From Chiloscyllium plagiosum (taxonomy: Eukaryota): a stretch of 55,517 nucleotides of DNA. Numbering within the stretch: position 1 is the first letter of the stretch; each line of letters opens with the position of its first letter. Location of the stretch: the NCBI RefSeq assembly GCF_004010195.1, contig NC_057740.1, positions 33,138,165 through 33,193,681 on the forward strand, read 5' to 3'. Positions 3,134-55,517 of this stretch are shown piece by piece. A program made the position numbers and the translations under genes. The notes under the pieces were generated by a model that was given only the letters and a program-made list of their open reading frames with translations, ran no database searches and was not told the origin of the DNA.

Positions 3134-3248
3134 ATGCCGTCTTTGCGAGAACGCTTTGAGAATTTCCTGAACGAAAAGAATTTTATCACCAACATATTGG
3201 GGAAAATTGAGGAGAAGACTGGAGTGCGTAAATACAATCTAGCTACAG
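3134..3248 (+). CDS. REEP6: REEP6 coding exon 1 (MPSLRERFENFLNEKNFITNILGKIEEKTGVRKYNLAT-G)
   Basis: ATG at 3134 with A at -3. The peptide matches the REEP5/6 (DP1/Yop1) N-terminus (LRxRFExFLxEKNxxTxxLGKIEEKTG). 115 coding nt end at a phase-1 donor CAG|GTAGGA. Confidence 0.95.
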
Positions 3249-20189: not shown

Positions 20190-20263
20190 TCTTACAGACA
20201 TTATGTAGCAGCAAGAAGTTCGTAAGGACAGATGCAGGACCTAAACCATTACCTAATGTGTCT
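20190..20263 (+). CDS. REEP6: REEP6 alternative exon, REEP6.1-like (VLQTLCSSKKFVRTDAGPKPLPNVS)
   Basis: Long U-tract acceptor ttttgttttttgctttag, phase-1 compatible with exon 4. VLQTL resembles the start of the mammalian retina-enriched exon 5 (VLQVL, recalled). Best donor is TCT|GTATGT at 20263; alternatives at 20221 and 20267. Confidence 0.7.
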
Positions 20264-24338: not shown

Positions 24339-24376
24339 CAATGAAAATATATCTTGAAAAAGACAAGAATAACTGA
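24339..24376 (+). CDS. REEP6: REEP6 terminal coding exon (AMKIYLEKDKNN*)
   Basis: Branch-like tactaat plus pyrimidine tract and tttcag, phase 1. Total CDS is 555 nt (184 aa), the recalled length of the human short isoform. KDK near the C-terminus as in mammalian REEP6. Confidence 0.8.
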
Positions 24377-30380: not shown

Positions 30381-30511
30381 ATGTCAATGACTGCAACCAG
30401 ATTCATTTTCACTCTGATAGTTTTGGCCACCCTGTATGTTCTGTTCTTATATGGAACTGCCTTGTTTCCCTTTATCAATACAATTATTTTTCTGTATCCA
30501 GCCTACTTCTC
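30381..30511 (+). CDS. REEP5/6-like paralog, first coding exon, homologous to exon 2 (MSMTATRFIFTLIVLATLYVLFLYGTALFPFINTIIFLYPAYFS)
   Basis: Ends YPAYFS with the same phase-2 donor TC|GTAAGTATG as REEP6 exon 2. LYVLFLYG aligns to [11 protein letters not shown] at 30381 has A at -3 and an in-frame TGA at 30372. The 5' boundary is uncertain (possible acceptor before 30421). Confidence 0.8.
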
Positions 30512-30859
30512 GTAAGTATGTGATGGTTTCTAAATCAATATCAGAAAAGTCTTCTCCAAGATGCTTGCAATTCTTTTCGTTTTGCATTCTTGCCTTTTTT
30601 TAAAATTAGGCTTGCCTTTTCTTTTTAGGGTCATCATTCTGTCTTGTTTCCCAACTTCTCCCCAAGCACACTGCTTTTTGGAGATTGTGTTGTGATCATC
30701 CAGCAGCTTAATCATGACTGTTAATTGATGTTCAATTACAACACTGTCATAAAGCAACTTTTGAAACCAATTCACTCAATACGCACATTCCATTGTGCTC
30801 TGATATAAATCCTCTGGTTGCCCCAATCACAAAGATAGTAAAAAGAGCTGAATTAAAGC

Positions 30860-31560
30860 CAAAGAGTGAAATTTTGCAGAAGAATAGGGCAACAAGTCAG
30901 GCAGCATCCAAGGAGCAGGAGAATAGGGCAGGCCTAACATACTAACTGAAGTTGCAGTGAAAGTGGAAATACAGCATAGGCTAAAAGTTAAGGGAGTGAA
31001 CTAGACTAATATTAGATTAAATTATAAAGGATAACCCCACCCTGAATGGACCAGGATACATGTGAGCATACTGAAGGAAGTGGAAATAGAAATTGGAAGA
31101 CTAGTTCCTCCCCAATTAGCCTTTAGATGTAGGAATGATACCAGAATATTGGAGAATGGCAAATATTTACACCCTTTATCAGAGAAGGGTGTAAAAGTAT
31201 GCACATCAATGTCAGAGCAAAGCTGCAGTGGTGTGGAAGCTTGATCAAGCAATAGCCTGGAATAACATTAACAGCCACTTTAGATTAAGAGAAATTGGAA
31301 TGGATTTGTTGTGGGGGAAAATAGTGTTTAACCAACTTGCTCGAGTTCCTAAATAAGGAGACATGATTAGGGCAATCCAGTTGAGACACACATGGACTTA
31401 AAAAGCATCTTGGCAGACTATCAGCAGAGTTGAAGACTGTATCCATCTTATTATTGACTCTTACTCTACAAAGTTTGATGTGTGACAGAAAACCAAACAG
31501 TAATTGTAAAAAGTCCTGCAGTCAGCATAAACAATGGAGTTCCCTTAGACTAACCAGTCT
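30860..31560 (+). mobile_element. Old CR1 RT remnant (further degenerate CR1 pieces at ~32650-34100)
   Basis: Degenerate GIHxRILKE, WRxANI and CLTNLLEF-type coding remnants. Confidence 0.55.
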
Positions 31561-32252
31561 GTAATTCCAAAAGCTGACTCTCTTGAATGCCACACGCTCC
31601 CCACATTCAGTTCTGGAAAAAGTCATACTGGACATGACGTTAGCTCTGTTTCTCCCTGTTGTTACTGCCCTGCCCTGTTTCTCCAGCATTCTGTGTTTGT
31701 TTCACACCATCAACACTTGTGTTCCCAGACCATGGTTTCTTTCCAAATTAACTTGTACCTTCAATTCTTCTTCCACCTACATTCATCATGAATCACAAAA
31801 AGCTGTAAAACATCCAAAGGTTATTGAGGAAAGAATTCTAATACTCAGTGCAAGATGTATTTGGTTAATATTTTAGACCTTTGTTCTGTTAATGAGTTAA
31901 GTTAATCATAAATGCTGCCTAAAAGTTAATGATACAGCTATCACTGTTGAATTGAGCAAGTTAATAGGTAATTGTTAAATACCCCATAAGCATGCATAGA
32001 ACATCAGTCTTAACTACAGACATCTTGTCTGTAAAGTGAAAAATGAGATTTTAATTTTGTTTTTCCACTTCTAAGCAAAACAGAAAACATCAATGGACAT
32101 TTTAGGTTTGTTGGTAAGATTGGTACACTCATGGAAGTTAAATATATCAAAGCAGCTTTGACCAACACTGTTAGTGAATAATTTAATTTATATTTGTCAA
32201 TTGTGCTCGACATGTTCAGATGAACTGTGAATCTGGACCTGCAAACATGCCA

Positions 32253-32480
32253 GGAGAAAGTGAAGACTACAGATGCCAGAGAGTCAGAATCAAAAAGGTG
32301 GTTCTGGAAAAGCACAGCAGGTCAGGCGGCATTGGAGAAGCAGGTGAGCCGATGTTTCAGGCATAAGCCCTTCCATCAGGAATGTTCCTAAAGAAGGGCT
32401 TATGCCCGAAACGTCGACTCTTCTGTTCCTCAGATGCTGCCTGACCTGCTGTGCATTTCCAGCAGCACCCTTTTCGACTC
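32253..32480. mobile_element. Inverted pair of PLE terminal repeats
   Basis: gtttcaggcataagcccttccatcagg facing cctaaagaagggcttatgcccgaaacgtcg. Confidence 0.8.
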
Positions 32481-35400
32481 CGCAAAGAAGCCAAATTGTT
32501 TTCAACTTAATAGGTTTAATTTGCCCTTCTATCCTTAACCCAGACACTTTTCTCTATATAAAATATGAAAACTTTTCTATTCATGAAGCAGCTTTTTAAT
32601 TCAAATAGCGATCCAGTTATAAAGCAATGTAGACTTTGGAATTTGTGCAACTTTTGTACAATGCACTATTTGCTATTTACTCAAATATAAAGGCCGGTTA
32701 ATAAGATAAATTTAATCTAGAACAATATGAAAGCTGCCCTTGCTATACAAGGGCAGCAGAGTAAGAAGTATAGATTTAGGAAGAACTATAGTACGGCAGT
32801 TGGAACAGATGGTTAATTTAAGACCTAATTCAATAATTACACACAATCTCAAACAATTTGCATGGTGTGCTACAGAAGATAACAGAAACCAATTACACTG
32901 TCCATAATGGGCTTTGCTTGAAAATACTTAGTTGGGTATATGGGTATTTTTACTCGGGGTGGTTTAGTTTTTACAGAAAAAAAAGTCACTGTGACTTTAA
33001 TGGGAAGCTCACAGAATTGAGTGTGATAATATTTCTAGATAGTTGGGGAAAAAATAGGTTGTTGGAAATATTTAAGAAATGAGTTAGCCCAGTGTACATG
33101 AGAACCATGTGGGATTATCCAACATAACCCTGCATCTCTTTTTCTCCAAGATCTCAGTGCATGAAGTCTTGGGTAGACATGAGGCCATACTTTAGATCCA
33201 GAAAGTAAAAATCAAGTGTTGTTTAAAATAAAAAGCAATTTAGGGACCCTGTATACAGAGCCTGTAGTCTAATGGGTACAAAAGTAGTTAAAAAATAAAG
33301 GCAATAGTGTGTTCCTCTTTAAAATCTAAATGGCTGATACATGAAGAGAGAGAGAGTTGTTGCATATGGAAAACCTAGGTTAGAGATGTGTTCTCAAAAG
33401 TTCAAAGAACTGCACCTTAGGTCTCCTATGTAACACTTTTCGTCAAAATGTTACCAAATCTCCAAGGGTTAAATTGAGGTCAGATTATATTTACTACGAT
33501 TGTAATGTCTTGATAGGAGGCATTTATAAAATTAAGGGTTATCCCCTTTAGGACAGCTGATTTTGTTTCTTGAGGGTTACGCAATTTTGGAACTCTGCCT
33601 CGGAAGGCAGTGGCAGAGATGGGAATCATTATTTTTATCAGTGAGAGAGATGGATGGATGATTATTAGGTGAGGTTATTGTGAGTAGCTGGGACTGTGAG
33701 AATTCAACACAACGAATCAAAAGCAAACTTGCTGTGCAGGCTCAAGGGGTTAAATGACCTACTCCTCCTCTAAGCCTATATATCTCTTTGAAATATAAAG
33801 GTAAAAAGGTGATTTCATGAAGCATTTAGTTTTTAGATTTTTGTTTTCTAATGCTGGATTAAGTTTTAAGGGGAATGATAATAAAATCAGAGCCAATCCA
33901 ATCTAGAGGGAAGTTGTAGGCAATAATTCTTCAAGAAAAGGATGCTTAGCATGTAAAATTCACTCCCACACAGAAGAAAGATTCTGTTGTTTTGCAAGAC
34001 ATGACTAAAAAAATGATATGGAGTCAAGATAAAGATGACCTGTGGTCTTACAGAACAATAGTACAGGTGCAGGGGCCTAAAAAGACTTCCACTTGGTCCT
34101 GTGAGAACTGAGCAGACTCCAATGTTAAGTCAGCTTTCATTGAGGGGAGGCAATGTGAAGAGAAAACTTGACACTCCATCAGACATAAACAGGACGTTTC
34201 CACTTTTGGTTAGAGCAAAACCAGGAACCATGAGGTAAGGGTATGAAAGCTAATTATATTGTCTTGATTTAAAATACACCAACTTATGACAGTCACCAAT
34301 AAATTTAAAAAGGAATTCATGCAAAACTGTGGCCCATGGTGAAGCTGTTAAAAAATTGTATTAATTTTATCTTGGGTTATAAATTTTGTTCCTTGCGCTT
34401 TGAAAGGCAGAGAAGATAGATCAAATTATTGAAGAATCTTGGTCAGATAGCATTGAAAAATCTTTTTCAACTGTTGAGTAGTTAATGTCAGAATATATTG
34501 CCTGAAACCATGGGGAAGGCTGTTTCAATTTGCACTTCTGAAAGGGAATTACTGTTCTCCCAAAAGGAATACTGTTCAGGATTGTGGGAAGAAGGTGTAG
34601 GAATAGTGCTAAGTGAATTCAGTGAACAACCAAGACTTTGAGAGTGATTAAAAATTCCAAAATATTTTTCTACTCATAAGCAATACAATTGAAAAACTGT
34701 TCTATTATAATCCTTAATATATTGGTATCTTAGACATGCATTTCAGTGTGTGGTATCTACTGTGTTACTGAGCCATAGCAGTCTGGAAGTTCCTAGATTT
34801 AATTTCTGGTCCGCACTGAGGTAGGAGTGGGCTGTTTACTTGGTGCATTAAGCTTGTTCTGCCATATATTGAGATCATGGCTGACCTGCAAACTATCCAA
34901 CTTTGTGACTTTCAGTCACAAAAATCTATCCATGTCAAATTTAAACTGGTGATTGTTTTTCAAATGACACTTGATAAACAATGATCCAAGTTTCTGCAAA
35001 CTTTGCATATAGGATTGTTTCTTAATTGCATTGCCCTAGACTAAGACTCCTCAAGTGGTAGAAATAGGTTTTCTTCTATCTACTCCATTTCCCATGATAT
35101 CATGAAAACTTTGAACGAACCATGTCTTAAGTTGGTGTATTTTAATCGAGGCAATACAATTAGCCTTATACCCCTAACACATGGGGTAGGGGGGTTGCAT
35201 GGCATGGAATGCAACCAGACTTTGCACTTCTGACTGATATCTAGAAGAAACCATCATGGCCAAACAATTTGTACAATTCATCAAGCTCATTTAAAAATTG
35301 TGCATTTCCATGTTTGGTGCTAATGGGTTGATGGCACCTGCTGAACCATGGCCAAGTTGGAAGCAACATCCTCAGGATATGGCCAAAGAAGAAAGGGAGA

Positions 35401-35502
35401 GATTTTTCAGATAGAAGATAAATTGATTAGTGTTCAGACTAATAATGTCCTGATGCAATCAAGTAGGAGTGATGTGACTGTCCTTAATCTTTGGCTTTCT
35501 AG

Positions 35503-35641
35503 AATTCTAGCTATCGAAAGTGACAATAAAGAGGATAAATTGAAGTGGCTTATGTACTGGGTGATATATGGAGTATTTTCAATATTTGAATGTGCAGCTG
35601 GCCTCCTTCTGTATCTGTTACCAGACTATCATAAAGTGAAG
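35503..35641 (+). CDS. REEP5/6-like paralog, exon homologous to exon 3 (ILAIESDNKEDKLKWLMYWVIYGVFSIFECAAGLLLYLLPDYHKVK)
   Basis: 139 nt like REEP6 exon 3, same phases, AG/GT intact, 24/46 residues identical by manual alignment. Confidence 0.9.
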
Positions 35642-35744
35642 GTACGAAACTGATTTTATCTCTGCCCTCCTATGATCATCAGTTAAATCTAGCTTATTAA
35701 GATCAGCCCATACCCATAAAATGTAGTACATTTATATAATTTCG

Positions 35745-36105
35745 GTAGTTGTGGGTATGTTCACTGAGCTGGGAAGTTGATTTGCAGACATTTCATCCCC
35801 TGTCTAGGTGACATCTTCATTGCTGTAGAGCCTCCTGTGAAGCATTGCTGTACTTGGGCTTCTGGATTTTCTTTGGTTCCGTTTCTGCTGCTTCCAGTTC
35901 CGGCTATTTGACTGTTGCAATGAACAACCAGAAGCGGCAGGAATGAAGCCAAATAAATTCCAGAAGAGACAGTACAGCAGCAGCATTCTAAAGCAATGAA
36001 GATGTCATCTAGACAAGGGCTGAAAGGTCTGCAAATCAACTGCCCAGCTCAGCGAACGTATCCACAACAGGCACTCAAGCTGCAAATCCTTATGCAAACC
36101 TTGAT
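35745..36105. mobile_element. Older fold-back PLE fragment
   Basis: Inverted arms related to the 11937 and 43276 family. Confidence 0.75.
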
Positions 36106-36760
36106 GTCCAATTTCTCTTTAATATTGAATGTATATTAGAAAATATGAGCTGAATAGATGTGCTTTTATTTCTCCTATTTTGCTGTTATAACTTGAACAA
36201 AAGCCAAAAAAGTGTACTTCTGAAATAGGTATGCAGGCAACATGAACTTTATTTCTCATGTGCCCTGGAACTGGTACATGCAGTGTTTAAAACCACTGCC
36301 TCAAGAAGCCATCAAACGTAAGAAACGTTGGGAGCTTCCTATCACTGAGGCAGCAAAATCAAAGCCAACAATGTCCAGGAACCATGGATAAGCCCTCTTT
36401 CTTCAGATGTTGATCATGAACTGATGTTCTGACCATATCATATGGCTTCAATGTGTGTAGGGGTCAGGGAAACCATTTTAGACTCTCCAACCAAACTTGC
36501 AAGTAACAGTGGGGCAGAAGGAAGCTATGCTGTATTGTTGCCTCAATATTGTTGGTATACCACTTATTACGTTGCCAAAACATAATTTATTATAATTATA
36601 CAGGGAAAGCAAAATACAACAAGTCACTGCTGGGAAAACTCAGATTCAATCTGGCTGAATTAGACTGCAACCCAAGAACAAGAAGCCACTGTTTAAGCAA
36701 TTGTATTAAAGTATCCCCAAAAGCTTGCTCCATAAGTAACAATTTTTTTTTATTCTTCAG

Positions 36761-36917
36761 AGTATCTTTCTGATGTGGTGCATGGCACCAATCGATTGGA
36801 ATGGTTCTCGTATAATTTACATGAATTTCATCCGTCCCTTCTTTTACAAGCATAAACCCATGATGGATGAACTTGATGAGAAAATTACAGAGGTTATTGA
36901 TAATGTGAAGATGGAAG
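36761..36917 (+). CDS. REEP5/6-like paralog, exon homologous to exon 4 (SIFLMWCMAPIDWNGSRIIYMNFIRPFFYKHKPMMDELDEKITEVIDNVKME)
   Basis: Acceptor ttttttattcttcag, WCMAPxxWNGS and IRPxFxKH motifs, phase-1 donor GAA G|GTAAAG. If the donor is read through, the stop is at 36950-36952. Confidence 0.88.
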
Positions 36918-37103
36918 GTAAAGCCAATACTGAAGTAAATATCAGAAGATGAACAAAAGATGGAACAGAACAGTGAGAAAGGTTTAAGTTTGCATGTAAC
37001 CCTGAACCAGTGACCCCCTGAAAGATTTGGAAACTTTGAAATGCAGAAGGAGGAAAAGCAAAAGGTTCCAATCATCCGCTAAGTCCATATAAGAAAGTAC
37101 ATA

Positions 37104-37322
37104 CAGTTGGTTCTGATATATTGCGATAGTTCCGTTCTCGTGCAATTTCGCGTTGTAAGACAGTCATGTAATAGCTGTGCTACATAAACTAATGGGGTCG
37201 GAATTGCATTATAGCCAATACAGGTAAGGACACTTTGAGTTCTACAAATAACTGTCTAAGTTCGTCAATCATGTTAAAGCTAATTGGCATTGGAGAAATG
37301 TGTGTTATAGCAGAACCAACTG
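37104..37322. mobile_element. Tc1/mariner(pogo)-type MITE
   Basis: 17-bp TIRs cagttggttctg(a/c)tata (16/17 match) with TA on both sides. Confidence 0.85.
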
Positions 37323-38342
37323 TACTAACTATAATCCAATGTGTTTATGAACTGGTAAAGGCAGTATTTGAACTCTGTCCTCATGAAACAACTGAATAAG
37401 AAAATCAGGACCTTGCTCACAATTTAGAAACAATTGCAGGTTTTAGAGGGGCCGAAAGAAGGTATGCTATATAATTGCCTCAATATTGTTGGTATATCAC
37501 TTATTTCATTGCCAAAACTTAAATTACTATAATTATACAGGAAAGGCATCTTACAAGGTGTCACTGCTAATTTAACCTCAGCTTGATATGCAGATCCAGT
37601 AATTTCCATAAAGCTATTGCTTGTGTCCATTTGACACCCATTCCCTGAAGTGTCAATAGATTACAGAAATCCCTATGTGTACTTGGACACTGCGCACACA
37701 CTCTCTCAAGACAAGTGGCCATGCACAAGGACACAGAAATGAGGTAGGCAGCCACACGGACTCCTCTGGGCAACATCTAGCCTGTACTGTCAAGTCCAGG
37801 AGAATAGCCACCAGGAGATCTTCCAAATTACTAGACTACAGCCACCATCCCCCATCCACCAGGATAGTGAAGATCAGGAGCCCAAGGATAATAACTAAAA
37901 ACGTTGAGGAGTAGCTCCTTCAAACAATTGAATAGAGGCACAAACCACCACCACCAGCATATCATATAAATTTAGACCATAACTCATCTAAACTGCAAAA
38001 GATGCATGCGGCAGAGGACTCTGAGAAGTAACTTGTGAATATGTTAAACATTATTGCTCAGAGCAACATTCATTACTCAAGTCTCCAATTGTACAAAGAT
38101 GGCTAAACCTCTTCAAACATGTTTATTTCATTAATAATATTTAAAATCTGTGTAACTAGCAATTAGAAATCTAAAATGAAATAATTATTTAAATTAAAAC
38201 TAAAAATTGAATCATATATTTAGCAATGACCATTTTATTGATTTATGATTGAATTGTTAACTTTTGAGTACCCTAGTGGGTATAGTAACAATCATAATCA
38301 AAGTGGATTGCAACAGCAAAGTCATGTGACTGTATGACTTAA

Positions 38343-38565
38343 CATGTCATGCAGTCTAATTGCATTAGCTCAACCAGGAATACTTTAACTAAGCTTTTTT
38401 ATGTTTTGGATGTAGGTTATTGTTTGTGTTCCGGTTAGATTCACACATGTATTGGGACATAATTTTTAACCGTTTCACCACACCATGTCATGCAGCCTGA
38501 TTGCATTAGCTCAACCAGGAATACTTTAACTAAGCTTTTTTATGTTTTGGATGTAGGTTATTGTT
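38343..38565 (+). repeat. 82-bp direct duplication, period 141
   Basis: catgtcatgcag...gtaggttattgtt at 38343-38424 and 38484-38565. Confidence 0.9.
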
Positions 38566-38711
38566 AAAGACTTTACAAATTACATTCTCTCCAAAAAAGA
38601 AGTGATTGAAACTGCAGTGAGGAGCTGCTCACTACTACCTTGTCTAAGCCTTTAATTTCTGTCAATGGCAAGCTGTGACCTTTAATTTGACACAAGAAGG
38701 AGCCTTTCAAA

Positions 38712-39070
38712 CTCATAGAGTCATACAACACGGGAACAGATCTTTCGGTCAACCAGTCCATGCCAACCATGTTGCCAAATTAAACTAGTCCCACCTGCCT
38801 GTGCTTGGCCCATATCCCTCCAAACATTTCTTATTTATGAACATATCCAAATGTCTTTTAAACGTTGTGACTGTATCCACATCCACTGCTTCCTCTGGAA
38901 GTTCATTCCACACACGAACCACTCTCTGTGTAAAACAATTGCCCCTAATGTCTTTTATAAATCTTTCTCCTCTCACCTTAAAAATATGCCCCCAGTCTTG
39001 AAATCTCCAACCCTAGGAAAAAGATACTTGCTATTTACCTCTATAAGGTCACCCCTCAAACTCCTACTCT
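38712..39070 (-). mobile_element. CR1-type LINE 3' end
   Basis: FTQRVVRVWNELPEE...FKRHLD motif and catagagtcata tail. Confidence 0.9.
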
Positions 39071-40134
39071 CATTGAATGTTTTATTCCTTTGCTTCTTTT
39101 GCTTTCTTTTTTCCTTTTTCTGTTTCCACTTTAGCGCGCACATTTTATTTTATGTTTCTATTTTATCTTTCTCTTCATTCTCTTCATCTTTTCCTTTTCC
39201 ATTACTTTTCAGCATCAGCTTTCCAAAGTGTGAGTCAATACTGGGTGTGAGAGTGGTGCAAGACCAATATGTCAAGAATCATTTAACTGCAAGTTAGTTT
39301 GGATAAATGAATATCTACAGCTTGGTTTGGCTTATCAAGTGACTTGAAATTATCCGACACATAAATAGAAGAGAAGGCACAATTACAGAAAGTACAACCT
39401 TTCCAATGATCCACCTGGTTTCTGCTAGAGAAAAAAATAGTTGAACACGTAGAGGAACAACATTAGCTGCTACAAATAGCCAGTTATGTCAAATCTCTAC
39501 AGGTCCTTGTAGTTTTCAACCAAAGTAACACTGAAATGCCAATTGGAACATGAAAGAACTACAACAGCCTTCAGGGCCAACACCTATACAACTGTAATAC
39601 AAAGCGTAGTTTATCATTCTTATAAATAGGTAAGGATTAAATGTTCAGACCATTTGGGGTGCTCTACAACTTGCTGAAACAAAGGCCTTGAGATTTTTAA
39701 GCACATAACTGTTATGACATGGGGTAAACCCTCCTGCTTTTAATTTGAACCAACAACACAGAAAAGATTTATCCCATGCAGTAACCTGTGAAAATTCGAG
39801 AGATCAAGAACTATTTAAAGTAAAATTTAATAACTTTATTTCTTAAAGTATAACAGAGAATAATTAACTGACAACTATTTACAACTCCTTTCTCTAACCT
39901 ATCTTTTACCTTCCCCTTCTATAATACTAGTCCGATAAAACTCCTGATTAAAATTTACAAAACAAAACTTCTTATCTCAAAACCAGGCAGCTTTCAGTTC
40001 TTTTCTGTATTCCTGTCTTCTTTTCTTCTTCTTGGGGATTCTGCCTCACCGCTTAATGATTGATGAAGGTACCTTTAAGTGAGTTGTGTTTTCTGATAGT
40101 TTCTGCATGCTGGCTTGGCAGTTCTCTCAATTGT

Positions 40135-40476
40135 TGAAACTTTATTGCTGGAACAGCACAGCAAGTCAGGCAGCATCCAGGGAATAGGAGATTCGACGTT
40201 TCAGGCACAGGCCCTTCTTCATTTCCTGAAGAAGGGCCTGTGCCCGAAACGTCGAATCTCCTGTTCCCTGGATGCTGCCTGACCTGCTGTGCTGTTCCAG
40301 CAATAAAGTTTCAACTTTGATCTCCAGCATCTGCAGACCTCACTTTCTCCTCTTGGGTCAGTTCTCCAGCTGGTGAGTAGGACCCCTGTTGTCTTCATTA
40401 AATGTCCCCCCTGGAATCATAATGGTACAGAAAGTCAGTTGGCTTATTAAATCTGCAGACCTCACTTTCTCCTCCA
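40135..40476. mobile_element. Fold-back PLE insertion with captured segment
   Basis: 15-bp direct repeat agttctctcaattgt (40120, 40477), ~90-bp inverted arms, intact + strand core at 40226-40253. Confidence 0.88.
40222..40260 (+). ncRNA. Minimal type-I hammerhead ribozyme motif (PLE-associated)
   Basis: CUGAAGA-a-GGGC cugu GCCC-GAAAC-GUC, with palindromic ACGU helix III and a GUC cleavage triplet. Activity is untested. Confidence 0.65.
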
Positions 40477-42355
40477 AGTTCTCTCAATTGTCCAATCCTC
40501 CCTGGTCTTAAACCCCCTGAGCATCAGATTGTGTCATTGGCTTTTAAGATTGTCACTATACTAAATTCAAACTTGATTGAGATTTAGTATTTTCGGAGGA
40601 TAATTTAAACTGATTGGCCAAATTCAAATTTGTTTTTGTCTCATAGCAACTCAGCCAGTGCTATCTGTTCTGAACCAAATGTTACATTGTAAATTCTCCA
40701 GCACTTGGTATGCTTGTCAAGTCCTTCACTCTCTTAAAGGTACAATACACTTCTACACCTTCATAACATTACCAGGTCCACAAATATTCTGTAATTAATT
40801 ACTTTATGACTATCACATAAATTCACAAGCCTATTTGTGCATAGCGAGATCACACAAGCAGTAAAAGAGATAAATCACGAGTTAATCTGTTTGGGTAGGA
40901 ATGGTGGGTAAATAATTTTAGAGTGGAGACCAGAATAAATGTTTTTCCTTGAATTATGCTATGGGATCATTACATTCACTACAGCAACTACCACCTCAGT
41001 TAAACATATCATCCAAAATGCACTATTGTATAATGGCACAGGCTGGAGGCTGGACGCTGGATGCTGGACTGGTACTATTCAGGGCAGTAAGATGATGTCA
41101 TGACAAGTGAGTTTCCAGATAAAAGATTAAGGTCACTAAACTCAGTGCAATGATCTTCATCTATTGTATTCAGTCTGTGTGTGTATGTGTGTGTTTGAGA
41201 GAGAGAGAGGTGTATCACTAAGTCAGTAAGCACAAAGTGCATGTGATTTATATGCACAAACTAAGTGTAAGGCTGAGATACCATTTCAATGTAATAGGTT
41301 AGTGTTGCTAACAAATTTCAGGACATCTGTATCAAAACACAGGAATTGTCTAGGAAATTGAAGATTCCAATGGGCAATTCCCTCTGAGATAACCTCTTAA
41401 TGACAGAATTCAGGAAGTTCCATTTCCATTAAGTTACTGGTTACCCAAAAAAAGTTAGACAATTAAAAGACTTGTCTATCTCCTGGGTAACTAATAAGTT
41501 GACCTCCTCCAATTTATACCCACTCCCCAACCACACACACACTTCCCAAATACTTCTTTCCAAGACCCCTGACCATTTGCTGAGAGAGAGGGGGAGAAAA
41601 ACAGGTGTTTAAAGATTAAGGGCTCATCTGCAAAGTTAGCTGGGCAATAAAATTCACTTCAGCCCAAATGGATCTGGTCCAGAACCCGAACTGTGGCTCC
41701 TATTCCTGTCACCACCCGTGAGATATCTTGAAAGACACAGATTAAGTGCTAATGTTTCACAAGTTTGATGATAGATTCCTGACAAATCACACTTGAAGAT
41801 TGGGAAATTGGTTAATCGTAAAAAACTCAGTGACACCTGTCGAACCAAACCTATGCAGATATCAGTAGCTTCAGGAAAGGAAGGGCGAGGTTCAAAGAAG
41901 AAGAATGAATGCTTCCCCTAGGTGGCTATCAAGAACAGTAACATGGCTAGAGTTCAAAAGGCTGATTTAATGATATGTAGACATGGGTTGAAATACCACC
42001 AGCAACTGGAGAATGTGAATTGACAAAACTATCATAATGATGATGATTTAACTACCTGATTGTTGTAAAAATATATCTAGTTCATTAATTCCATTTTGTA
42101 ACCTGCTGGTCTGTTCTATATTTGACATCAGCAACATGCTTGACTTTAAACGGTCTCCCGAAATGGCCTAGCAAGCCACTTAGTTATGAACAATAAATGC
42201 CAGCTTTGCCAGCAACATTCTCATTCCCGTGAGTGAATAAAGGAAAGTTAAGGGTTGATGAGGACAGCAGCAAGTCTCAATTGCAGATCCAAGACAGGGT
42301 GGATGATGCAGGTTTCCTATTGGTGCACCCTAGCTAATTCTATTCTTTCTTACAG

Positions 42356-42409
42356 TTTTCCCAACACCGGAACCAGAACCAGTCATAGCCACAACCTCAA
42401 GGCATAAAA
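42356..42409 (+). CDS. Probable paralog exon (VFPTPEPEPVIATTSRHK), symmetric phase 1
   Basis: Branch gctaat plus tctattctttcttacag, 54 nt open, donor A|GTAAGT, phase-compatible with 36917 and 49832. Confidence 0.55.
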
Positions 42410-43275
42410 GTAAGTTCAGGTTAAATGAAGGGCATTAATTAGAACACAAAAAGTTCAATTATAGAGTGATAGTATCATACAGCATGGAAACAGACCCCGC
42501 AGACCAAATAGTCCACACCAACTATGTTCGCAAACTCAACCCATCCCACTTGCCTGTATTTGGCCCTTATCCCTCCAAGCCTTTCCTATTCATGTACTTA
42601 TTCAAATGTCTTTTAAATGTTGTCACTGTACCTGCATCCATCACTTCCTCTGGCACTTCATTCCACATGAACCACTGTGTAAAATGGTTGCCCCTCATGC
42701 CCTTTATAAATTTTTCTCCTCTCACCTTACAAATATGTCCCCTAGTTTTGATCTCCCTCTCCCTAGGAAAATTACTCTTCTTGTTCACCTTATCTATATC
42801 CTTCATGATTTATACATCTCAATGTCAACCCTAAACCTCCTACGCTCCAGTGAAAAAGTCCCAGTCTATCCAGCATCTCCCTTGAATTCAAACCTTCCTG
42901 TCCCAGTAACATCCAGGTAAATCTTTTAGAACCCTCTCCAATTTAATAATATCCTTCCTATGACAGGGCGACCAGAACTGCACACAGTACTCCAGAAGAG
43001 GCTTCATCAACATCCTGTAAAACATGACATCTCAACTTCTGTATTCAAAGGACTGAGTAATGAAAGTAAGTGTGCTAAACACCTTCTTAATCACCCTGTC
43101 TACTGTCATGCAAATTTCAAAGAATTATGTACCTGAACCCCTAGGTCTCTGTTCTACAGCCCTCAAATGTATAAGTCCGGCTCTTATTTGTTTTACCAAA
43201 ATGCAAAACCTCACATTTATCCAAGTCAAACTCCATCTGCCTCTCTTCAGCCATTGACTCAATTGATAAAGATCT

Positions 43276-45062
43276 TCAAAGTTTGTGCAAAGATTTGTAG
43301 CTCGGGTGCTCGTTGTTGTGGTTCTGTTCGCCGAGCTGGGAATTTGTGTTGCAGACGTTTCATCCCCTGTCTAGGTGACATCCTCAGTGCTTGGAAGCCT
43401 CCTGTGAAGCGCTTCTGTGATCTTTCCTCCGGCATTTGTAGTGGTTTGAATCTGCCGCATCCGGTTGTCAGTTCCAGCTGTTTGCTGCAGTGGCTGGTAT
43501 ATTGGGTCCAGGTCGATGTGCTTGTTGATTGAATGAGTGGATGAGTGCCATGCCCCTAGGAATTCCCTGGCTGTTCTCTGTTTGGCTTGTCCTATAATAG
43601 TAGTGTTGTCCCAGTCAAACTCCTGTTGCTTGTCATCTGTGTGTGTGTGTGTGTGGCTACTAAGGATAGCTGGTCATGTCGTTTCGTGGCTAGTTGGTGT
43701 TCATGGATGCGGATCATTAGCTGTCTTCCTGTTTGTCCTATGTAGTGTTTTGTGCCGTCCTCGCATGGGATTTTGTACACTACATTGGTTTTGCTCATGC
43801 TGGGTATCGGGTCCTTTTGTCCTGGTGAGCTGTTGTCTGAGAGTGGCTGTTGGTTTGTGTGCTGTTATGAGTCCTAGTGGTCGTAGTAGTCTGGCTGTCA
43901 GATCAGAAATGTTCTTGATGTATGGTAGTGTGGCTAGTCCTTTGGGNNNNNNNNNNNNNNNNNNNNNNNNNNNNNNNNNNNNNNNNNNNNNNNNNNNNNN
44001 NNNNNNNNNNNNNNNNNNNNNNNNNNNNNNNNNNNNNNNNNNNNNNNNNNNNNNNNNNNNNNNNNNNNNNNNNNNNNNNNNNNNNNNNNNNNNNNNNNNN
44101 NNNNNNNNNNNNNNNNNNNNNNNNNNNNNNNNNNNNNNNNNNNNNNNNNNNNNNNNNNNNNNNNNNNNNNNNNNNNNNNNNNNNNNNNNNNNNNNNNNNN
44201 NNNNNNNNNNNNNNNNNNNNNNNNNNNNNNNNNNNNNNNNNNNNNNNNNNNNNNNNNNNNNNNNNNNNNNNNNNNNNNNNNNNNNNNNNNNNNNNNNNNN
44301 NNNNNNNNNNNNNNNNNNNNNNNNNNNNNNNNNNNNNNNNNNNNNNNNNNNNNNNNNNNNNNNNNNNNNCCGTTACATCGAATGAGACCATAGTTTCTTC
44401 CTTGTCTATGTGTATATTTCTGATGATGTCCAAGAATTCCTGTGTTGACTGTATAGAGTGTCTGGATCCACTGATCAGGTGTTTCAGTTTCTGCTGTAGT
44501 TCTTTAGCCAGTTTGTGTGATGGTGTCCCTGGTAGTGATACAATGGGTCTGAGTGGGATATGAGTCTGACTCATAACAGCACACAAACCAACAGCCACTC
44601 TCAGACAACAGCTCACCAGGACAAGGACCCAATACCCAGCATGAGCAAAACCAACGTAGTATACAAAATCCCATGCAAGGACGGCACAAAGCACGACATA
44701 GGACAAACAGGAAGACAGCTAACGATCCGCATCCATGAACACCAACTAGCCACGAAACAACACGACCAGCTATCCTTAGTAGCCACACACACACACACAC
44801 ACACAGATGACAAGCAACAGGAGTTTGATTGGGACAACACTACTATTATAGGACAAGCCAAACAGAGAACAGCCAGGGAATTCCTAGAGGCATGGCACTC
44901 ATCCACTGATTCAATCAACAAGCACATCGACCTGGACCCAATATACCAGCCACTGCAGCGGACAGCTGGAACTGACAACTGGAAGCGGCAGATTCAAACC
45001 ACTATAAATGTCGGAGGAAAGATCACAGAAGCGCTTCACAGGAGGCTCCCAAGCACTGAGGA
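43276..45062 (-). mobile_element. Penelope-like retroelement (RT + GIY-YIG), 5'-truncated with an inverted copy
   Basis: NVVYKIPC...YIGQTGR...RIHEH (GIY-YIG) and PLRPIVS...MVSFDVT (PLE RT); inversion at ~44565; 12-bp direct repeat tgataaagatct (43264, 45063). Confidence 0.93.
43947..44369. other. Assembly gap (N run)
   Basis: 423 N characters. Confidence 1.
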
Positions 45063-46269
45063 TGATAAAGATCTCTTTGTAATCTTAGATAACTTTCTTC
45101 ACTGTCCACTATAACACCAATTTTGGTGTCATTTGCAAATTTACTAACCATGCCTCTTATTTTCTCATTCAAGTCATTTATATAAATGACAAACAAAAGC
45201 GGACCCACTACTGATCCCTCTGGAACACCACTGGTCCCAGGCCTCAAGAGTGAAAAACGACCCTCCTCCACCACTCTGTCTCCTCCTATCAAGCCAATTT
45301 TGTATCCAATCAGCAAGGTCACCCTGAATCCCATGTGATACAACTTTGACAAGATTCCACATGGTAAACTAATTAGTGCAGGCTTTACTGAACAATGTGT
45401 ACTGCTCTGTCTTCTTCAATCTTTTTGGTTACTTCCTCAAAAAACGTCACCTTTGTCTCACAGACTTGACTATCTCATTTCATGCCTTTGCCCTCCTGAC
45501 TTCTCTTTTAAGAATACCATGGCATTCTATACTCTTGAAGAGATTCATTTGATTCTAGTTGTCTATATTTAATATGATTCTTTCTTATTCTTGACCAGAA
45601 CCTCAATATCTTTGTTCATCCAATCTTCCCAACTCTTACCAGCCTTGCCCTTCATTCTAACAGGAACATAATGCCTCTGAACTCTCATTATCTCACAACT
45701 GAAAGCCTCCCACTTGTCAGTCATCCCTTTACCTGCAAAATGTCTACTTCAGTTGACATTTGAAAGTTCTTGTCTCATACCATTAAAATTTGCCTTACTC
45801 CAATTAAGGACTTCAACTTTTATGGAAGGCTCATCCTTTTCCAAAACTATTTTAAAACTGTTATGATTATTAGTCCCAAAGTGTTTCCCTGCTAACACTT
45901 CAGTCACTTGTCCTGCCTTATTTCCTAAGAGAAGGTCAAGTTTCATTCCTTCTCTAGTGGGTACATATTTACATATTGATAAAGAAAATTTTGCTAAACA
46001 CATTTAACAAATTTTTTCTGACTATCCAAACCTTTATCACTATGGTAGTCCTAGTCCATGGTTAGAAAGAAATCCCCTTCTATTCCAACTTTATTATTCA
46101 TACATTTATTTGAGATCTCGCTACATATTTGCTCCACAATTTCTCTCTGAATATTGAGGGCCTTTTACAACCCCATTAAGGTGATCTTCCCTTTCTTATT
46201 TCTAATTTCTACCCGTATAGTTTCAGTGGATAATGTCTCAGAAATATCCTCTCTACTTACAGTAGTAGT

Positions 46270-46451
46270 CATGATGTAGAGATGCCGGTGTTGGACTGAG
46301 GTGTACAAAGTTAAAAATCACACAACACCAGGTTATAGTCCAACAGGTTTAATTGGAAGCACTAGCTTTCAGAGGAGCGACGGTCCAAAAGCTAGTGCTT
46401 CCAGTTAAACCTGTTAGAATATAACCTGGTGTTGTGTGGTTTTTAACTTTG
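46270..46451. mobile_element. Fold-back short PLE insertion (2793 family)
   Basis: ~75-bp inverted arms; 10-bp direct repeat tacagtagta (46258, 46452). Confidence 0.85.
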
Positions 46452-49015
46452 TACAGTAGTAATGTTTTCCTTAATCAAAAATGTCACTCCCCTTCCTGTT
46501 GTGTCTCCCTTTTTGTCTATCCCTCCTAAAGCATCTACATCCCAAAACATTGAGTTGTCAATCTTGTTCTCCTCTCAGTCAAGTTTCTATAATAGTTATG
46601 ATGTCCCATGTTTCCATACATATCCTGAGTTCATCAGCCTTACTTGTAAAACTCTCTGCATTGAAATAAATAGTTTAATTCTTCAGAATTACATCATTAC
46701 CTGATTTGCTCTTATCTGCCTTTTCTAATGAACTTGTCCTTTTCTGATTCAGAACCATTCCTTTCTGTGTTTCTACTTTTACTGCTGCTTAGTAATCTCC
46801 CCCTTACTAGTTTAAAATCTCTGAAATAGAATGAGCAAATCTCCCTGCCAGGATGTTGGTCCCTTTCCAGTTCAGGTGAAACCCATCCCTTTGAACAGGA
46901 CTTTCCTGCCCCAGAAAAGATCCCAATGATCCAAACATTTGAATCCTTGCACATTGCACCATCTCTTTAGCCACTGATTTATCTGCCCTATCTTTTTATT
47001 CCTACTCATTAGAATGTGGCACCTGGAGAAAACCAAACTACTGCCTTTGAGGTTATGCTTTTTCATCTTCTATCTAACCTCTTATATTCATTCTGCACAG
47101 CCTTAACCCTTTCCCTAATTATGTCGCTCCTACTAATGTGGACAACAACTTCTGGTTTCTCACTTTCCCCTGAGATAGTATGCTGCAACTGTTTTGAGAC
47201 GTCCTTCATCCCTGGCACCAGGAAGGCAACAATACTCTTCTAGATTCATGCTATTGGCCACAGAATCTCCTGTCTGTGCCCCGACAGGAGAGTCCCCTAT
47301 AACAATTATTCTTTTAAATCTTTACAAACCCCACTTAACCTAAGATTCATTCTTAGTGCCCATGATCTGACTGCTACTTCTATTTTTTTTCTCCAAGAGT
47401 CTGTCCCAAAACGGAATATCTATTTGAGAGAGGAATAGTTACAGGAGACTTTAGAATTACCTTTTTACCTTTTCTGTTGTCACCCATCTATCTGACCCTG
47501 CTGTGTAACCACCTCTCTGAATCTACTAACCATCACACTCTGCGTCTCTTGAATGTCCACAGTGACACTAAACCTAAAAAGATGAAGCTCTTAAAAGCAC
47601 CTCATATATTAAAAATACTACCTTTCCTTACCCACAGACTTTAATCATAAGCATGCAAACGATTTTTAAAAAGTAAACATTTAAACCTTTTTTTAAAAAA
47701 TCAAGCATTTAGCTGAAACTATCATCAACTGAAAAAAGACCTCATCGTCAAATCCTCTATCAGTCAACTTTCAAACCTCCACATAAACAAGAAAAGTCTG
47801 TCCAGAGCCATTGAACAAACATGTGGTGGGCCTTTCCCATAAACTCCATGTGTAAACTAATCTCACATTCTTTGCAATTTTTAAAACATTTTCATGTATT
47901 TCTTTAACTATAGAAGTTTCAAACAAGTGAAAACAAAACCCTCTCTAGATCAACACTTGACAAACACTTGGAGGTCTCTCCCACAAACTCTGTGGGGAAA
48001 AAATTCTCCTCCTTTGCACTTTCTTTTCTGTACCTTATTTTTTGGACTAGTAAAGTTTCAAAAACTGATTTAAAATAAAACTTTTCTGTTTCTGCTGTAT
48101 AATAACCATAAGAAATCCACAAGAAATGCCTGTAACTCAGGAGCAGCTGCAAGATCCAAGCTGCTCTTGTTTCACCTTTTTTTTTGGGAGGGGTACGTTT
48201 AGTATCATATCGACTCCAGCAGAGTTTTATTGAAACAGGGATCAGTGTGTTAACTATGAGCTTATATACATATTATATTCTAATATCTGCTATCATATCT
48301 TCCTTGTAATAATCAGTAAGTGGACATGCCTATAACATTTCTCAATCAATTTTCAAAGCCTAGGTATCATGGATAATGGGCAGACCCATTGCCCACCACA
48401 GAATTATGCTAAGCTAGTACATTTTCAGTCTTTGAATAATATACTTTTATTTATCAAGCTACGAATGATTTAAAACTCACTGACGTTAATATACAATATT
48501 TTTGAATGCAATCTATCCATTTGCCAACCTCCTAAAATTGAGAGCAACCTAAGGAGGAATACTACTTTGTCACTTGGTGGGGAAGCATGTTGCAGAGAAT
48601 GATCTGAAAGCAAACAATTTCCAGTTTCTATTCCTCAATTAAAAGTCCCTAATAAACAACATCACATCTAATATCACTTCTGACTCAGTCACTCTTCCTC
48701 AACTTAACTTACTCCAATTACTCCTGTATCAACAATGAATGTTACTCTATTGATACTTCTTAATTCAAATTATTACACTTCTTTACAATAAAACAAAGAA
48801 CTGCAGATGTTGGAAATCTGAAACAAAAGCAGAAATTGACCAAGAAACTCAGGAGGTCTGGCAGCATCTTTGGAGAGGAAGCAGAGTTAACATTTCAAGT
48901 CCAGTGGCCCTCTAGTTCTGAAGAAGTGTTTCTCCAACAATTTCTGTGTTTGATTAAATTTCTTTTTAGTTTCCACTTTCCTTTCTTTGAATTTTATTTC
49001 ATTCAAGCTAAGACA

Positions 49016-49301
49016 GGTGGCACAGTGGCTCAGTGGTTAGCCATAGTGCCAGGGTCCTGGGTTCAATTCCACTTGCAGGTAACTGTCTGTATTGAGTTTG
49101 CACATTCTCCCTGTGTCTGTGTGGTTTTCCTCCCACAGGCCAAAGATGTGCAGGTTAGGCGGATTGGCCACGCTAAGTTGCCATAGTATTCAGGCTCAGT
49201 GGATTAGCCATGGAAAATGCAGGGTTATAGGGATGCTGTTCAGAGGTTGGTGTGGACTCGATGGGCTAAATGTCCTGCTTCCACACTATAGGGATTCTAT
49301 G
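49016..49301 (+). mobile_element. HE1-type shark SINE
   Basis: ggtggcacagtggctcagtggttagc...ggttcaattcc...gagtttgcacattctcc and a gattctatg tail. Confidence 0.88.
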
Positions 49302-49443
49302 GTTTCATCCTATGAACACTGAGACTTTGCTGCAATGAATAAGTCTGCTACCTTTCAACAGAAATATTTCATTTTTTATAACAAATCCTGCAAATGCCTA
49401 AACTAATTGTTTATGATTTAGTTGCCTGCCCAAGCCTCAAAAC

Positions 49444-49708
49444 CATTTTGTTGAAGCTTTTCACTGTTTACTCATCGGGACAATTTGCAAGAAATACTAA
49501 TGTAAGGGGTAAGGAACATCTGTACTGAATGTGAGGAGGGTGCTGATTGGCTGGCAAGTGGATTGGTAGAGGCAGTGTTGTATTAAGAATCCACTGGCCA
49601 ATTAATCAGCATTCCCCTTTCATATGGTATAAATGTTGTTTTCCCTTTACATTCATATTTCTTGCGGGTTATCCTGACGAGTACAAGATGAAAAGCTTCA
49701 ACAAAATG
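49444..49708. repeat. Palindromic element with hammerhead-like core
   Basis: 20-bp perfect outer inverted repeat cattttgttgaagcttttca, imperfect pairing throughout, CTGACGA (49674)...GAAAAGCTTC. Confidence 0.7.
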
Positions 49709-49831
49709 TCTTTCTTCAGTAATGCTCAGACTCTGTAATTGGAAATGATTATTGACCTGGATAAGACTGAAATGCCTTGTTCAGACATGTTATTGAAGTG
49801 CCCCTTTTATTGTTGACCTTTTGTATTTCAG

Positions 49832-49881
49832 TGATCAAAAAAAACGTGAATTCAATCTTCAAAAGATCAAAGAAAAAGTGA
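49832..49881 (+). CDS. Probable paralog terminal exon ((M/V)IKKNVNSIFKRSKKK*)
   Basis: Acceptor cttttgtatttcag, phase 1, TGA at 49879-49881, AATAAA at 49937-49942. Lysine-rich tail similar in length to the recalled REEP5 last exon. Confidence 0.55.
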
Positions 49882-51269
49882 GAACCCCACAGTGAATGGG
49901 TCAACTCTAAGACTACATATGCCCCAAACTCTCTGCAATAAAATACACAGTGGCTACATGGATGAAGTTGATTGGCGACGCTTGTGGGCATCCTTAAACA
50001 GATCGTCCTAGAAGCAATATATTTTCAGAACAGGCTTTTCGCTGGCAGGAATTTTATACACAATTTGATTATTCGTGATCTGAAATAAATGATATTTTTA
50101 CTATAATCGCTATCATTAAAATTAGTAAGTGTAATGATACAGAAGTAAAGATCAGAAATTAAAAACATTAACCTTTTCCAGTTGTTCAGCTGCTTTGTGC
50201 ATTGTTTCCTGTGACACTGAGCAATGGACAACAGGAGGAGGTGATGTGCCAGAAATTAAACTTGTTGAATGGTATCAATTGCAAAATGGGCTGGAAAATT
50301 TCTTTCTGAGCAAGACCATTCCATGATTCTATGCAGTTAGTTCATCATAGTCAGTACCACAATATGACATACACTATTAACCTCATTGTCTATAATTAAA
50401 GCCATGCTGAAAGTGTACTTCTGTGGATGTTGAATGAGGGTAGGACTTCGCTCAGTTATGAGTCCCACAAAAGTCAAACCATATGCTAAGACTTGCTATT
50501 TCTGCCAGCATCTCATGATTACTTGTTTGAAGTGCTATACACTGGCCAGTCTCTTTGAACAGGCCACAAGCAAGACCACTCTGGAAAAAAATTTAAGAGG
50601 GAGAAAAATTAATTTATACATTTCAGAATTGCAATGTTGTACATCTACCAGCAGAGGCCATCAGAGTATTTACATAACCTGCTCAGAGCTGCTAAGGGCT
50701 GTTAGTGCGGAAATCATTGTCACAGTTTCGGGGTAGAAGGCATTTAGGAATGCTGTACAGAGATTAGCCTCCTTTTTCTCTTTACCGAGATGGCACAGTT
50801 TCCCCAGGGAAACAAAAACCTCCAGCTGAGACAAGGGAGAGAATTTGAACCAAACTCACTGCTGGGAAAAACCCAATGATTCAATTGAGATTTACACAAG
50901 ATTTAACTGGGGAAATCGATAGACAGCAAAATCACACAGGATGTGAAACCAACATTCAACGTGATTCAGTCAGTTTCCCAATGTTAGGTTCTGTTAAAGT
51001 TGCCCGATTTGCACTTTTTCTGGTTGGAAAGGCTGCTGACCGATTTGGGATTGATCTGCAATCCGCAGAGGGGAGAGAGAAAAGGAAATGAACAGGGTGG
51101 TCTTACCGAAGTGTACAAGATAAATCTGGCAGGTCTGTGCTATTCACAAGGTTAACTTTTTTTATTCATAGAGTGAAAAGTCACAGTCAACACATGATCT
51201 GTGTTTGATTACAAGGCTGCAGTGTTGGGCCTTTCTTCCTCTGGCTCCAGCTAGATTGCACACAACTGT

Positions 51270-54960: not shown

Positions 54961-55214
54961 TTAAAAATAATGATGTAGTCCCTGGCAATGTGTAAATATT
55001 TGTAGGGCCAAACCCACACAAATAAGCTTTTAAAATCGTATTTCTAGCTGACTCAGACCTCAGAGCAGTGGGAAACAAATTAAAACAATAATAAGTGCTG
55101 GATTAACAATTATAATTGTTCATTCTGGGGTCTCATAAATTGGGTCACTAACTTTGAGTATTTTGGGTTGTACAATGATATTGATAGGAGGGTGCAGCCT
55201 TGCTTTAAGGGGTG

Positions 55215-55460
55215 TGGCCAGGGGTGGTTTGATTGACGTGGTTCCGGCGGCCGCCGCCATTGGGGCGGAAGGGAACGGCTTCACGGTCACTCCGATAAAC
55301 CTCAAACCCCGGGGCCTTTCCGGTAAACCCAGCATCAGGGTCTCGCCGACAATCCCCTCCGGTAGGGTCCTGCCCGGTTCACTCGGATTGTGGTTAAAGA
55401 AAGATGAGCGGCTCGAGGCCCGGGGCCAACCTCCACCTCACCCGCCTCCTCCCCCCCCGC
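55215..55460. promoter_or_regulatory. CpG-island promoter of an unidentified neighbouring gene
   Basis: Abrupt GC and CpG rise with clustered tgacgtg, ttccgg, gccgccatt (YY1-like) and ggggcgga (Sp/KLF). Confidence 0.7.
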
Positions 55461-55517
55461 TTCACCATCTCCCCCACCCCCTCACCATCTCCCCCACCCC
55501 CTCACCATCTCCCCCTC
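55461..55517 (+). repeat. 20-bp C-rich minisatellite
   Basis: (c/t)tcaccatctcccccacccc about 3 times, running off the window. Confidence 0.9.

Follow-up and report, generated by a model that had tools for sequence, protein, structure and literature searches.

The window examined here is a stretch of 55,517 nucleotides (nt) from the bamboo shark Chiloscyllium plagiosum (contig NC_057740.1). It carries REEP6 and, behind it on the same strand, a second gene of the REEP5/6 type, called here the paralog. The two stand in tandem, the ATG of the paralog lying 6.0 kb 3' of the REEP6 stop. Its five exons, when joined, give 531 nt, or 176 amino acids (aa) plus TGA, with no stops and no frameshifts. All of its parts lie on the + strand (TM, transmembrane segment):

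30381-30511 (131 nt, +): coding exon 1, with its own ATG, TM1 and TM2; equivalent to REEP6 exon 2 plus ~11 extra N-terminal codons
35503-35641 (139 nt, +): exon 2, equivalent to REEP6 exon 3; cytosolic loop and TM3; 24/46 residues identical to REEP6
36761-36917 (157 nt, +): exon 3, equivalent to REEP6 exon 4 minus 12 nt; TM4 and a shortened, more acidic C-terminal amphipathic helix
42356-42409 (54 nt, phase 1-1, +): exon 4, flexible linker
49832-49881 (50 nt, +): last coding exon, basic amphipathic tail with an IF[KRG][KR] motif, stop TGA
49937-49942 (+): AATAAA, candidate poly(A) signal, 55 nt past the stop

All four introns are GT-AG, each acceptor with a pyrimidine tract, and their phases are 2, 0, 1 and 1, the first three being the phases of REEP6 introns 2-4. 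The original prediction, made from the letters alone, had drawn this same ~176-aa model, exon for exon and down to the AATAAA, and it stands, as do the identities it gave with REEP6: 24/46 in REEP6 exon 3 and 20/36 in early REEP6 exon 4 (over exons 3-4 together, 48/98). It had also described the first three exons as mirroring REEP6 exons 2-4. That is right for the intron phases and for the 139-nt exon, but the first exon has 131 nt against 94 nt for REEP6 exon 2 and begins with its own ATG, three codons 3' of an in-frame stop, and the exon-4 homolog has 157 nt against 169 nt, a difference of 12 nt.

The first exon is the part that the RefSeq model of the bamboo-shark gene misses. When first exons from six orthologs are made into a profile and compared with all six frames of the window, the profile finds the exon proposed for the paralog at E 5.8e-18 and REEP6 exon 2 at 8.6e-6, with no other match below E 0.28. 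Residues 1-44 of the basking-shark ortholog align to the same exon with 54.5% identity (E 1.5e-9). The RefSeq model of the bamboo-shark gene, XP_043577267.1, is letter-identical to the window from paralog exon 2 through the C-terminus and has exons 2-5, so RefSeq predicts three of the four junctions. Its N-terminus I reject: the first 52 residues are in-frame intron before exon 2, with no TM and no match to any ortholog. The RefSeq model lacks the first exon and hence TM1 and TM2, and here the original prediction was correct where the database was not.

Exon 4 is likely a cassette exon, because the whale-shark model and catshark isoform X2 both lack a corresponding stretch. Two further catshark (Scyliorhinus canicula) isoforms, X3 and X4 (P0013, P0014), are predicted with short alternative first exons and would be without TM1 and TM2. 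Within the last intron of the paralog there is an assembly gap of 423 N (43947-44369), flanked by a 95% identical inverted segment of 495 bp. The gap could hide sequence; the RefSeq model and the orthologs require no further exon of the paralog. Frames near it look like a Penelope-type retroelement. Palindromic elements, among them relatives of a large palindrome in REEP6 intron 2, occur at 35748-36068, 40133-40315, 46302-46455 and 49444-49708.

The paralog is not peculiar to the bamboo shark. A query with its third exon brought 3 proteins from 4 candidates, and one with the basking-shark protein brought 10 from 67. Counting cluster members, there are orthologs in 11 species, all of them chondrichthyan (sharks, skates, rays and chimaera): Chiloscyllium plagiosum, Chiloscyllium punctatum, Rhincodon, Cetorhinus, Scyliorhinus canicula, Scyliorhinus torazame, Rhinoraja, Leucoraja, Narcine, Mobula and Callorhinchus. 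When 1.84 billion cluster representatives were searched with a profile, three paralog clusters came out at 218-306 bits and a partial Narcine isoform at 155, the rest at 163 or below. Among the 150 matches listed, 47 were inspected and 10 looked up, and these were ordinary REEP5/6 proteins of bony fish, tetrapods and lamprey. No bony-vertebrate member was seen in either the ortholog or the profile search, where clustering at 50% could hide one. A second REEP6 copy in teleosts, which might have been an ortholog, was ruled out, as it groups with teleost REEP6. Nor is there a second copy in the bamboo-shark genome by the ortholog query, whose 6 matches from 15 candidates are exons of the paralog, REEP6 and REEP5.

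The gene was originally thought to be hidden, and that it is not: RefSeq and UniRef already predict it in the 11 species, under the names REEP6-like, REEP5-like, unnamed REEP or hypothetical protein. The RefSeq records of the paralog and its orthologs are XP_043577267.1, XP_078412474.1, XP_038633695.1, XP_078279767.1, XP_055514920.1, XP_069784210.1, XP_062888679.1, XP_048470213.1 and XP_007896914.2. The names are automatic and do not distinguish these proteins from true REEP6. The first exon is missing in three of the models, those of bamboo shark, whale shark and chimaera. A published description was not found in titles and the openings of abstracts, though papers on shark genomes may include it in their tables of gene families; a term search of a superfamily review (PMC9437294) gives no hit for shark, cartilaginous or REEP7. 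What remains of the claimed novelty, then, is that no paper describing the gene was found, and this is a conserved third REEP5/6-type gene, predicted automatically in RefSeq and apparently undescribed.

There are several reasons to think that the gene has been kept by selection. Over REEP6 exons 3-4, the window protein matches its orthologs at 89/98 residues in whale shark, 74/98 in catshark, 64/98 in Rhinoraja, 53/98 in Mobula and 57/97 in chimaera, while REEP6 in the same comparison gives 95/102, 88/102, 87/102, 88/102 and 86/102. The paralog therefore evolves faster than REEP6, yet it is constrained. The columns conserved in REEP5/6 are invariant among nine paralog rows in 22/52 cases, against 4/46 elsewhere (Fisher p 1.8e-4). 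Comparison of the paralog with REEP6 over 112 codons gives a proportion of nonsynonymous differences (pN) of 0.32, below the synonymous proportion (pS) of 0.63 in 500/500 bootstraps; the corrected ratio is about 0.31, a value near saturation and averaged over both branches. Selection was measured by this ratio and by the conservation of columns, the orthologs being compared as proteins. In a simulation of a neutral copy, frame and splice sites were kept in 1.3% of cases at 0.1 substitutions per site and in 0/3000 at 0.3. The original prediction of an old, selected, possibly chondrichthyan-specific gene is thus borne out by orthologs in 11 chondrichthyans and by none in bony vertebrates in these searches, by conserved columns and by pN below pS. 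The evidence supports an old, selected member of the REEP5/6 subfamily, confined to chondrichthyans so far as the searches reach. It is an intact, old gene rather than debris, and it is very probably functional.

What sort of protein does it encode? The Pfam domain TB2_DP1_HVA22 scores 73.8-81.5 bits in 6/6 paralog proteins, against a cut-off of 27.2. The most striking departure is at the N-terminus. All seven full-length ortholog records begin just before TM1, so that only 20-22 residues precede the GYG motif, where 11/11 chondrichthyan REEP6 proteins have 47-50. The missing part corresponds to REEP6 exon 1, with its two amphipathic stretches (moment about 0.65), so that the two N-terminal amphipathic helices are absent. 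The four TM segments are all present, including TM1, according to hydropathy and the helices of the model. AlphaFold2, given the basking-shark ortholog and an alignment of 116 rows, returned a mean predicted local distance difference test (pLDDT) of 82 and helices at 5-21, 25-49, 53-81, 86-98, 105-142 and 165-171, of which the first four have the length of a TM, the fifth is long and the last short. Searches for a solved relative came up empty, both by sequence (no match up to E 1) and by fold (nothing at E 0.001 or lower).

The residues known to matter in yeast Yop1 are largely in place. Its dimer interface is formed by P71, A72, S75, Y93 and W94 (PMC11555649), whose equivalents are kept in 7/7, 6/7, 7/7, 8/9 and 9/9 paralog rows, and its bundle pocket by E104 and K121 (PMC10162974), each kept in 9/9; the positions were mapped by motif and spacing, Yop1 itself standing outside the alignment.

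The C-terminal amphipathic helix (APH-C; model helix 105-142) is four residues shorter than in REEP5/6, and its distal moment is 0.46, against 0.44 in REEP5 and 0.32 in REEP6; the helix is weak in the chimaera and Mobula rows. Beyond the linker comes the basic tail, with a net charge of +4 to +7 over the last 14 residues in 8/8 records tested and a moment of 0.27-0.60. Among 112 REEP6-type hits (after removal of 4 fused or aberrant rows) only 3 reach a net charge of at least +4 in their last 14 residues. The motif IF[KRG][KR] stands exactly 8 residues from the end in 7/9 paralog rows and in 0/112 of those hits. The tail is presumed cytosolic from the four-TM topology. For the tail a classic KKxx endoplasmic reticulum (ER) retrieval signal was weighed and dropped, as the shark rows have no lysine at position -4 and batoid tails end otherwise. 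Neither the loss of the exon-1 helices nor the conserved basic tail, the most distinctive points of the gene, had been noticed in the original prediction.

As to its origin, a tree of 51 rows by 134 columns unites eight paralog rows in a single clade (support 100/100) whose stem measures 1.21 and which falls within REEP6 (96/95). Seven of the 58 rows, being partial, mis-modelled or redundant, were excluded: Daphnia, a further lamprey, Nibea, the paralog of whale shark, an unnamed REEP5, Stegostoma REEP6 and a rodent-like REEP6. A clade of its own, with true REEP6 present in the same species, separates the paralog from REEP6 orthologs, and a constrained grouping with chondrichthyan REEP6 is not rejected (p of the approximately unbiased test, p-AU, 0.40). 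At synonymous third positions the paralog has 14 in common with REEP6 and 5 with REEP5, of 42 codons (p 0.064), a signal to which GC contents at third positions of 0.42, 0.41 and 0.47 may contribute. Protein sites diagnostic of REEP5 versus REEP6 amount to four columns and carry no signal. As a proxy for synteny, records of the paralog and of REEP6 lie on contigs of equal size in 5/5 comparable species (bamboo shark, whale shark, small-spotted catshark, Rhinoraja and Mobula); the pair in Scyliorhinus torazame lies on unequal contigs, apparently from different assemblies. Descent from REEP6 rather than from REEP5 is likely, then, because of the tandem position, the synteny proxy and the weak evidence of synonymous sites, the protein trees being unable to place the paralog. 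The simplest history would be that, in the chondrichthyan stem, part of REEP6 was duplicated in tandem, exon 1 staying behind, and that a new start was recruited just before TM1.

I propose that this intact five-exon gene likely arose as a partial tandem copy of REEP6 without exon 1 and that its protein, with four predicted TMs, likely still curves the ER as a dimer and is likely targeted differently from REEP5/6 (probability about 0.62). TM2 and TM3 would pair into the usual REEP dimer, and APH-C would wedge into the cytosolic leaflet to give curvature. REEPs are reported to dimerise via TM2 and to need APH-C for membrane curving (PMC7835363). Without the N-terminal helices the protein would be less tied to bulk ER tubules, and the basic amphipathic tail, on its optionally spliced linker, could dock on an acidic membrane and so place curvature at a specialised ER site. 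Two experiments in the literature make this plausible. Yop1 stripped of its N-terminal helices still rescues ER shape and tubulates membranes in vitro (PMC10162974), and REEP5 that has lost residues 2-51, hence TM1 as well as both helices, goes to vesicles instead of ER tubules (PMC11455953). The ER-shaping role is an inference. The two parts of the proposal are not equally secure: by analogy with its relatives the paralog is probably still a curvature protein, while a tail that anchors it to acidic membranes is a tentative idea.

A number of observations weigh against this proposal. On the side of the gene, transcription is supported solely by the RefSeq listing of four catshark isoforms, the spliced junctions and the start site being predicted. 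Predicted RefSeq isoforms usually rest on RNA data. (A search of sequencing runs with the 157-nt exon listed 24 runs, 13 of them with the stretch or part of it and no RNA run recorded, which has no bearing on expression.) The chimaera model has no credible first exon, and the models of Narcine and chimaera, in which the last exon seems not to be orthologous, are without the tail motif. On the side of the protein, REEP6 residues C58, G62, D82, T83, D103 and W108, near-invariant in REEP5/6, are replaced in every paralog row, some of the lost residues by new invariant ones, such as K82. The four-residue deletion in APH-C takes out, in a gapped alignment, the residue matching REEP5 V156, the position at which a proline makes the helix inactive (PMC11455953), and APH-C is more acidic (net -3.0 vs -0.7 and -1.1); with both changes curvature activity may be weaker. 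The AlphaFold2 alignment is dominated by ordinary REEP5/6, and the 12 paralog rows alone gave a pLDDT of 51. The analogy with the REEP5 deletion is only partial, because that deletion also took TM1, which the paralog keeps. On the side of descent, the tree with REEP5/6 called for by the original prediction gave the separate clade but not its place: none of six constrained placements was rejected under two models (p-AU 0.17-0.71 and 0.31-0.70, from fast searches), and constraining the paralog to REEP5 gave a log-likelihood 5.89 above the free tree (p-AU 0.71).

The last point bears on the strongest alternative, that this is the same gene but with an older origin, predating the split from bony vertebrates (or arising from the REEP5 side) and lost in bony vertebrates. 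All six placements survive, that outside REEP5 plus REEP6 has the best likelihood under both models, and the window protein is nearly as close to one as to the other (identity 0.48 to REEP6 and 0.48 to REEP5). With a stem of 1.21 substitutions per site, however, a long-branch pull towards the root is to be expected; the tandem position behind REEP6 and the synonymous sites (14 vs 5) favour REEP6, and neither search turned up a bony-vertebrate member. Draft models of paddlefish, sturgeon and Lucifuga, in which the two genes are fused, pass from REEP6 to UPF0449 with no paralog sequence between, a weak argument given that models can skip genes. I consider an older origin possible but clearly less probable than descent from REEP6.

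The proposal of a differently targeted curvature protein can be carried further. The paralog might represent a third REEP architecture, a four-TM curvature protein that traded its N-terminal helices for a basic tail like those of STIM and Ist2, bending the ER and tethering it to the plasma membrane, with the optional linker exon setting the gap. This is a speculative extension, and I put it on the unlikely side. If it is true, the gene is a natural ΔN experiment ~400 million years old and a shaper and tether combined.

It might instead be that the paralog shapes no membrane alone and is a modulator or cargo adaptor, pairing with REEP5/6 through its TM2/TM3 core and altering their behaviour. 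Remodelling has spared the dimer core and changed the cytosolic loop (DDT to [DE]K[LM]), TM3 at its luminal end and APH-C, and the cytosolic loop of Yop1 influences how efficiently tubules form (PMC10162974). Nevertheless, APH-C remains amphipathic, and helical in the model, and the N-terminal helices are dispensable for curvature in Yop1 (PMC10162974), so I regard a pure modulator as rather improbable.

A third possibility is that the paralog exons are an alternative 3' cassette of REEP6, spliced from REEP6 exon 1 so that the N-terminal helices are kept. There is a record of just this form, XP_072340019.1 of Scyliorhinus torazame (P0012), in which an exon 1 identical to that of REEP6 is joined to paralog exons; it may be a prediction artefact or a read-through transcript. 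In the paralog's first exon there is also, at 30421, a pyrimidine-rich AG that would open in phase 1 and so fits the donor of REEP6 exon 1. Against this, seven records from six species have their own methionine 20-22 residues before GYG, with a conserved MSxx(V)SRF start, and that start would not be conserved if it were intron, which disfavours the cassette as the main form. The junction in S. torazame is at a position other than the window AG, and REEP6 has a complete 3' end of its own. Such a cassette is a poor bet.

That the paralog is a decaying or neutrally drifting duplicate, as its pace relative to REEP6 (57/97 vs 86/102 to chimaera, 53/98 vs 88/102 to Mobula) might hint, is hardly credible in view of open frames in 11 species across a chimaera-elasmobranch split of 300-420 million years ago (PMC6238376), non-random conservation, pN below pS and the neutral simulation.

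The rest of the neighbourhood is easily described. The exons of REEP6 are:

3134-3248 (+): REEP6 exon 1, with the N-terminal amphipathic helices that the paralog lacks; 100% to the named protein P0182
9995-10088, 13769-13907 and 14164-14332 (+): REEP6 exons 2-4, match to P0182
24339-24376 (+): REEP6 last coding exon, 6.0 kb before the paralog ATG

An alternative REEP6 exon lies at 20190-20263, 96% identical to zebra-shark isoform X1 and placed where human REEP6.1 has its retina-specific exon 5. It has 74 nt and is out of frame into the exon at 24339, and must therefore lead to a different last exon. Intron 2 of REEP6 holds a near-perfect palindrome of 669 bp (98%; 11933-12601). Downstream, the next gene found is a homolog of UPF0449/C19orf25, ~10 kb beyond the end of the paralog, with pieces past the window at L019:4626-4763 and L020:6728-6952. 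The end of the window (55200-55517) is rich in GC and CpG and carries a tandem repeat of 20 bp; here that homolog probably has its promoter or first exon. A Chiloscyllium punctatum model fuses the third exon of the paralog to it. In the bamboo-shark genome as a whole, 10 of the 58 candidates scored in a Pfam search were matches, namely REEP6, the paralog, REEP5 (contig C2), five exon hits of REEP1-4 type on four contigs, and a broken REEP5 fragment. REEP5 exon 3 also occurs by itself, as a copy interrupted by a stop codon (L018:4773-4913, contig C3; 81% over 133 nt), beside a repeat and with no other REEP exons found in the 10 kb covered.

The REEP family is described as two subfamilies, REEP5/6 with four TMs and N-terminal helices and REEP1-4 with three TMs and without those helices. 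The paralog is a natural intermediate, with TM1 and without the N-terminal helices, and has persisted for hundreds of millions of years. In human REEP5 the published deletions took the helices and TM1 together, so the paralog lets one ask which part holds REEP5/6 on tubules. If the tail binds acidic lipids, ER shaping and contact-site tethering would be linked in one small protein. There is also an annotation to correct, in that the paralog deserves a name apart from REEP6 and the bamboo-shark model is short of TM1 and TM2. As it stands, this is a lineage-restricted paralog of a known family and not a new kind of system, of interest to specialists in ER shape and shark genomes.

Among known systems, the paralog resembles REEP6 (DP1/Yop1 family, PF03134), the copy in the window included, with which it shares three intron positions and phases, the 139-nt exon, the four-TM core and the motifs YPAYxS, YW, WCMAP and WNGS. 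Both have an optional exon before the last coding exon (exon 5 in human REEP6.1, PMC5142109), the sequences of the two being unlike. It differs from REEP6 in the absence of the amphipathic helices of exon 1 (22 residues ahead of GYG vs 50), in a 2-aa insertion between TM1 and TM2, in remodelled DDT, EFFSD and WFPFYY motifs, in an APH-C four residues shorter and more acidic, in the new basic tail and in its faster evolution. By TM count, exon structure and a sequence nearer to REEP5/6 than to REEP1-4 it is a member of the DP1/Yop1/REEP family and of the REEP5/6 subfamily, albeit one without the N-terminal helices that are part of that subfamily's description. In lacking them it is like REEP1-4, which also have no REEP5/6-type N-terminal amphipathic region (PMC11455953). 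REEP1-4, however, have no TM1 and a long disordered tail, whereas the paralog keeps TM1, the introns and sequence of REEP5/6, and a short tail.

The tail itself invites comparison with polybasic anchors between the ER and the plasma membrane, the lysine-rich tail of STIM1/2 and the signal of yeast Ist2, being likewise short, basic, amphipathic and putatively cytosolic. It may also resemble the STIM1 tail in sequence. Lysine-rich tails of the STIM type bind PIP2 (phosphatidylinositol 4,5-bisphosphate) and dock at the plasma membrane (PMC8944985). The paralog's linker, in contrast, has only about 10-30 residues. A further comparison is with REEP5 and Yop1, which have the same four TMs and APH-C and whose dimer-interface and bundle residues the paralog keeps. 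It is set apart from them by the natural loss of the N-terminal helices and by its basic IF[KRG][KR] tail, and REEP5 lies on another chromosome. The architecture arrived at in the paralog is that of the engineered Yop1 ΔNT mutant, which is still functional (PMC10162974).

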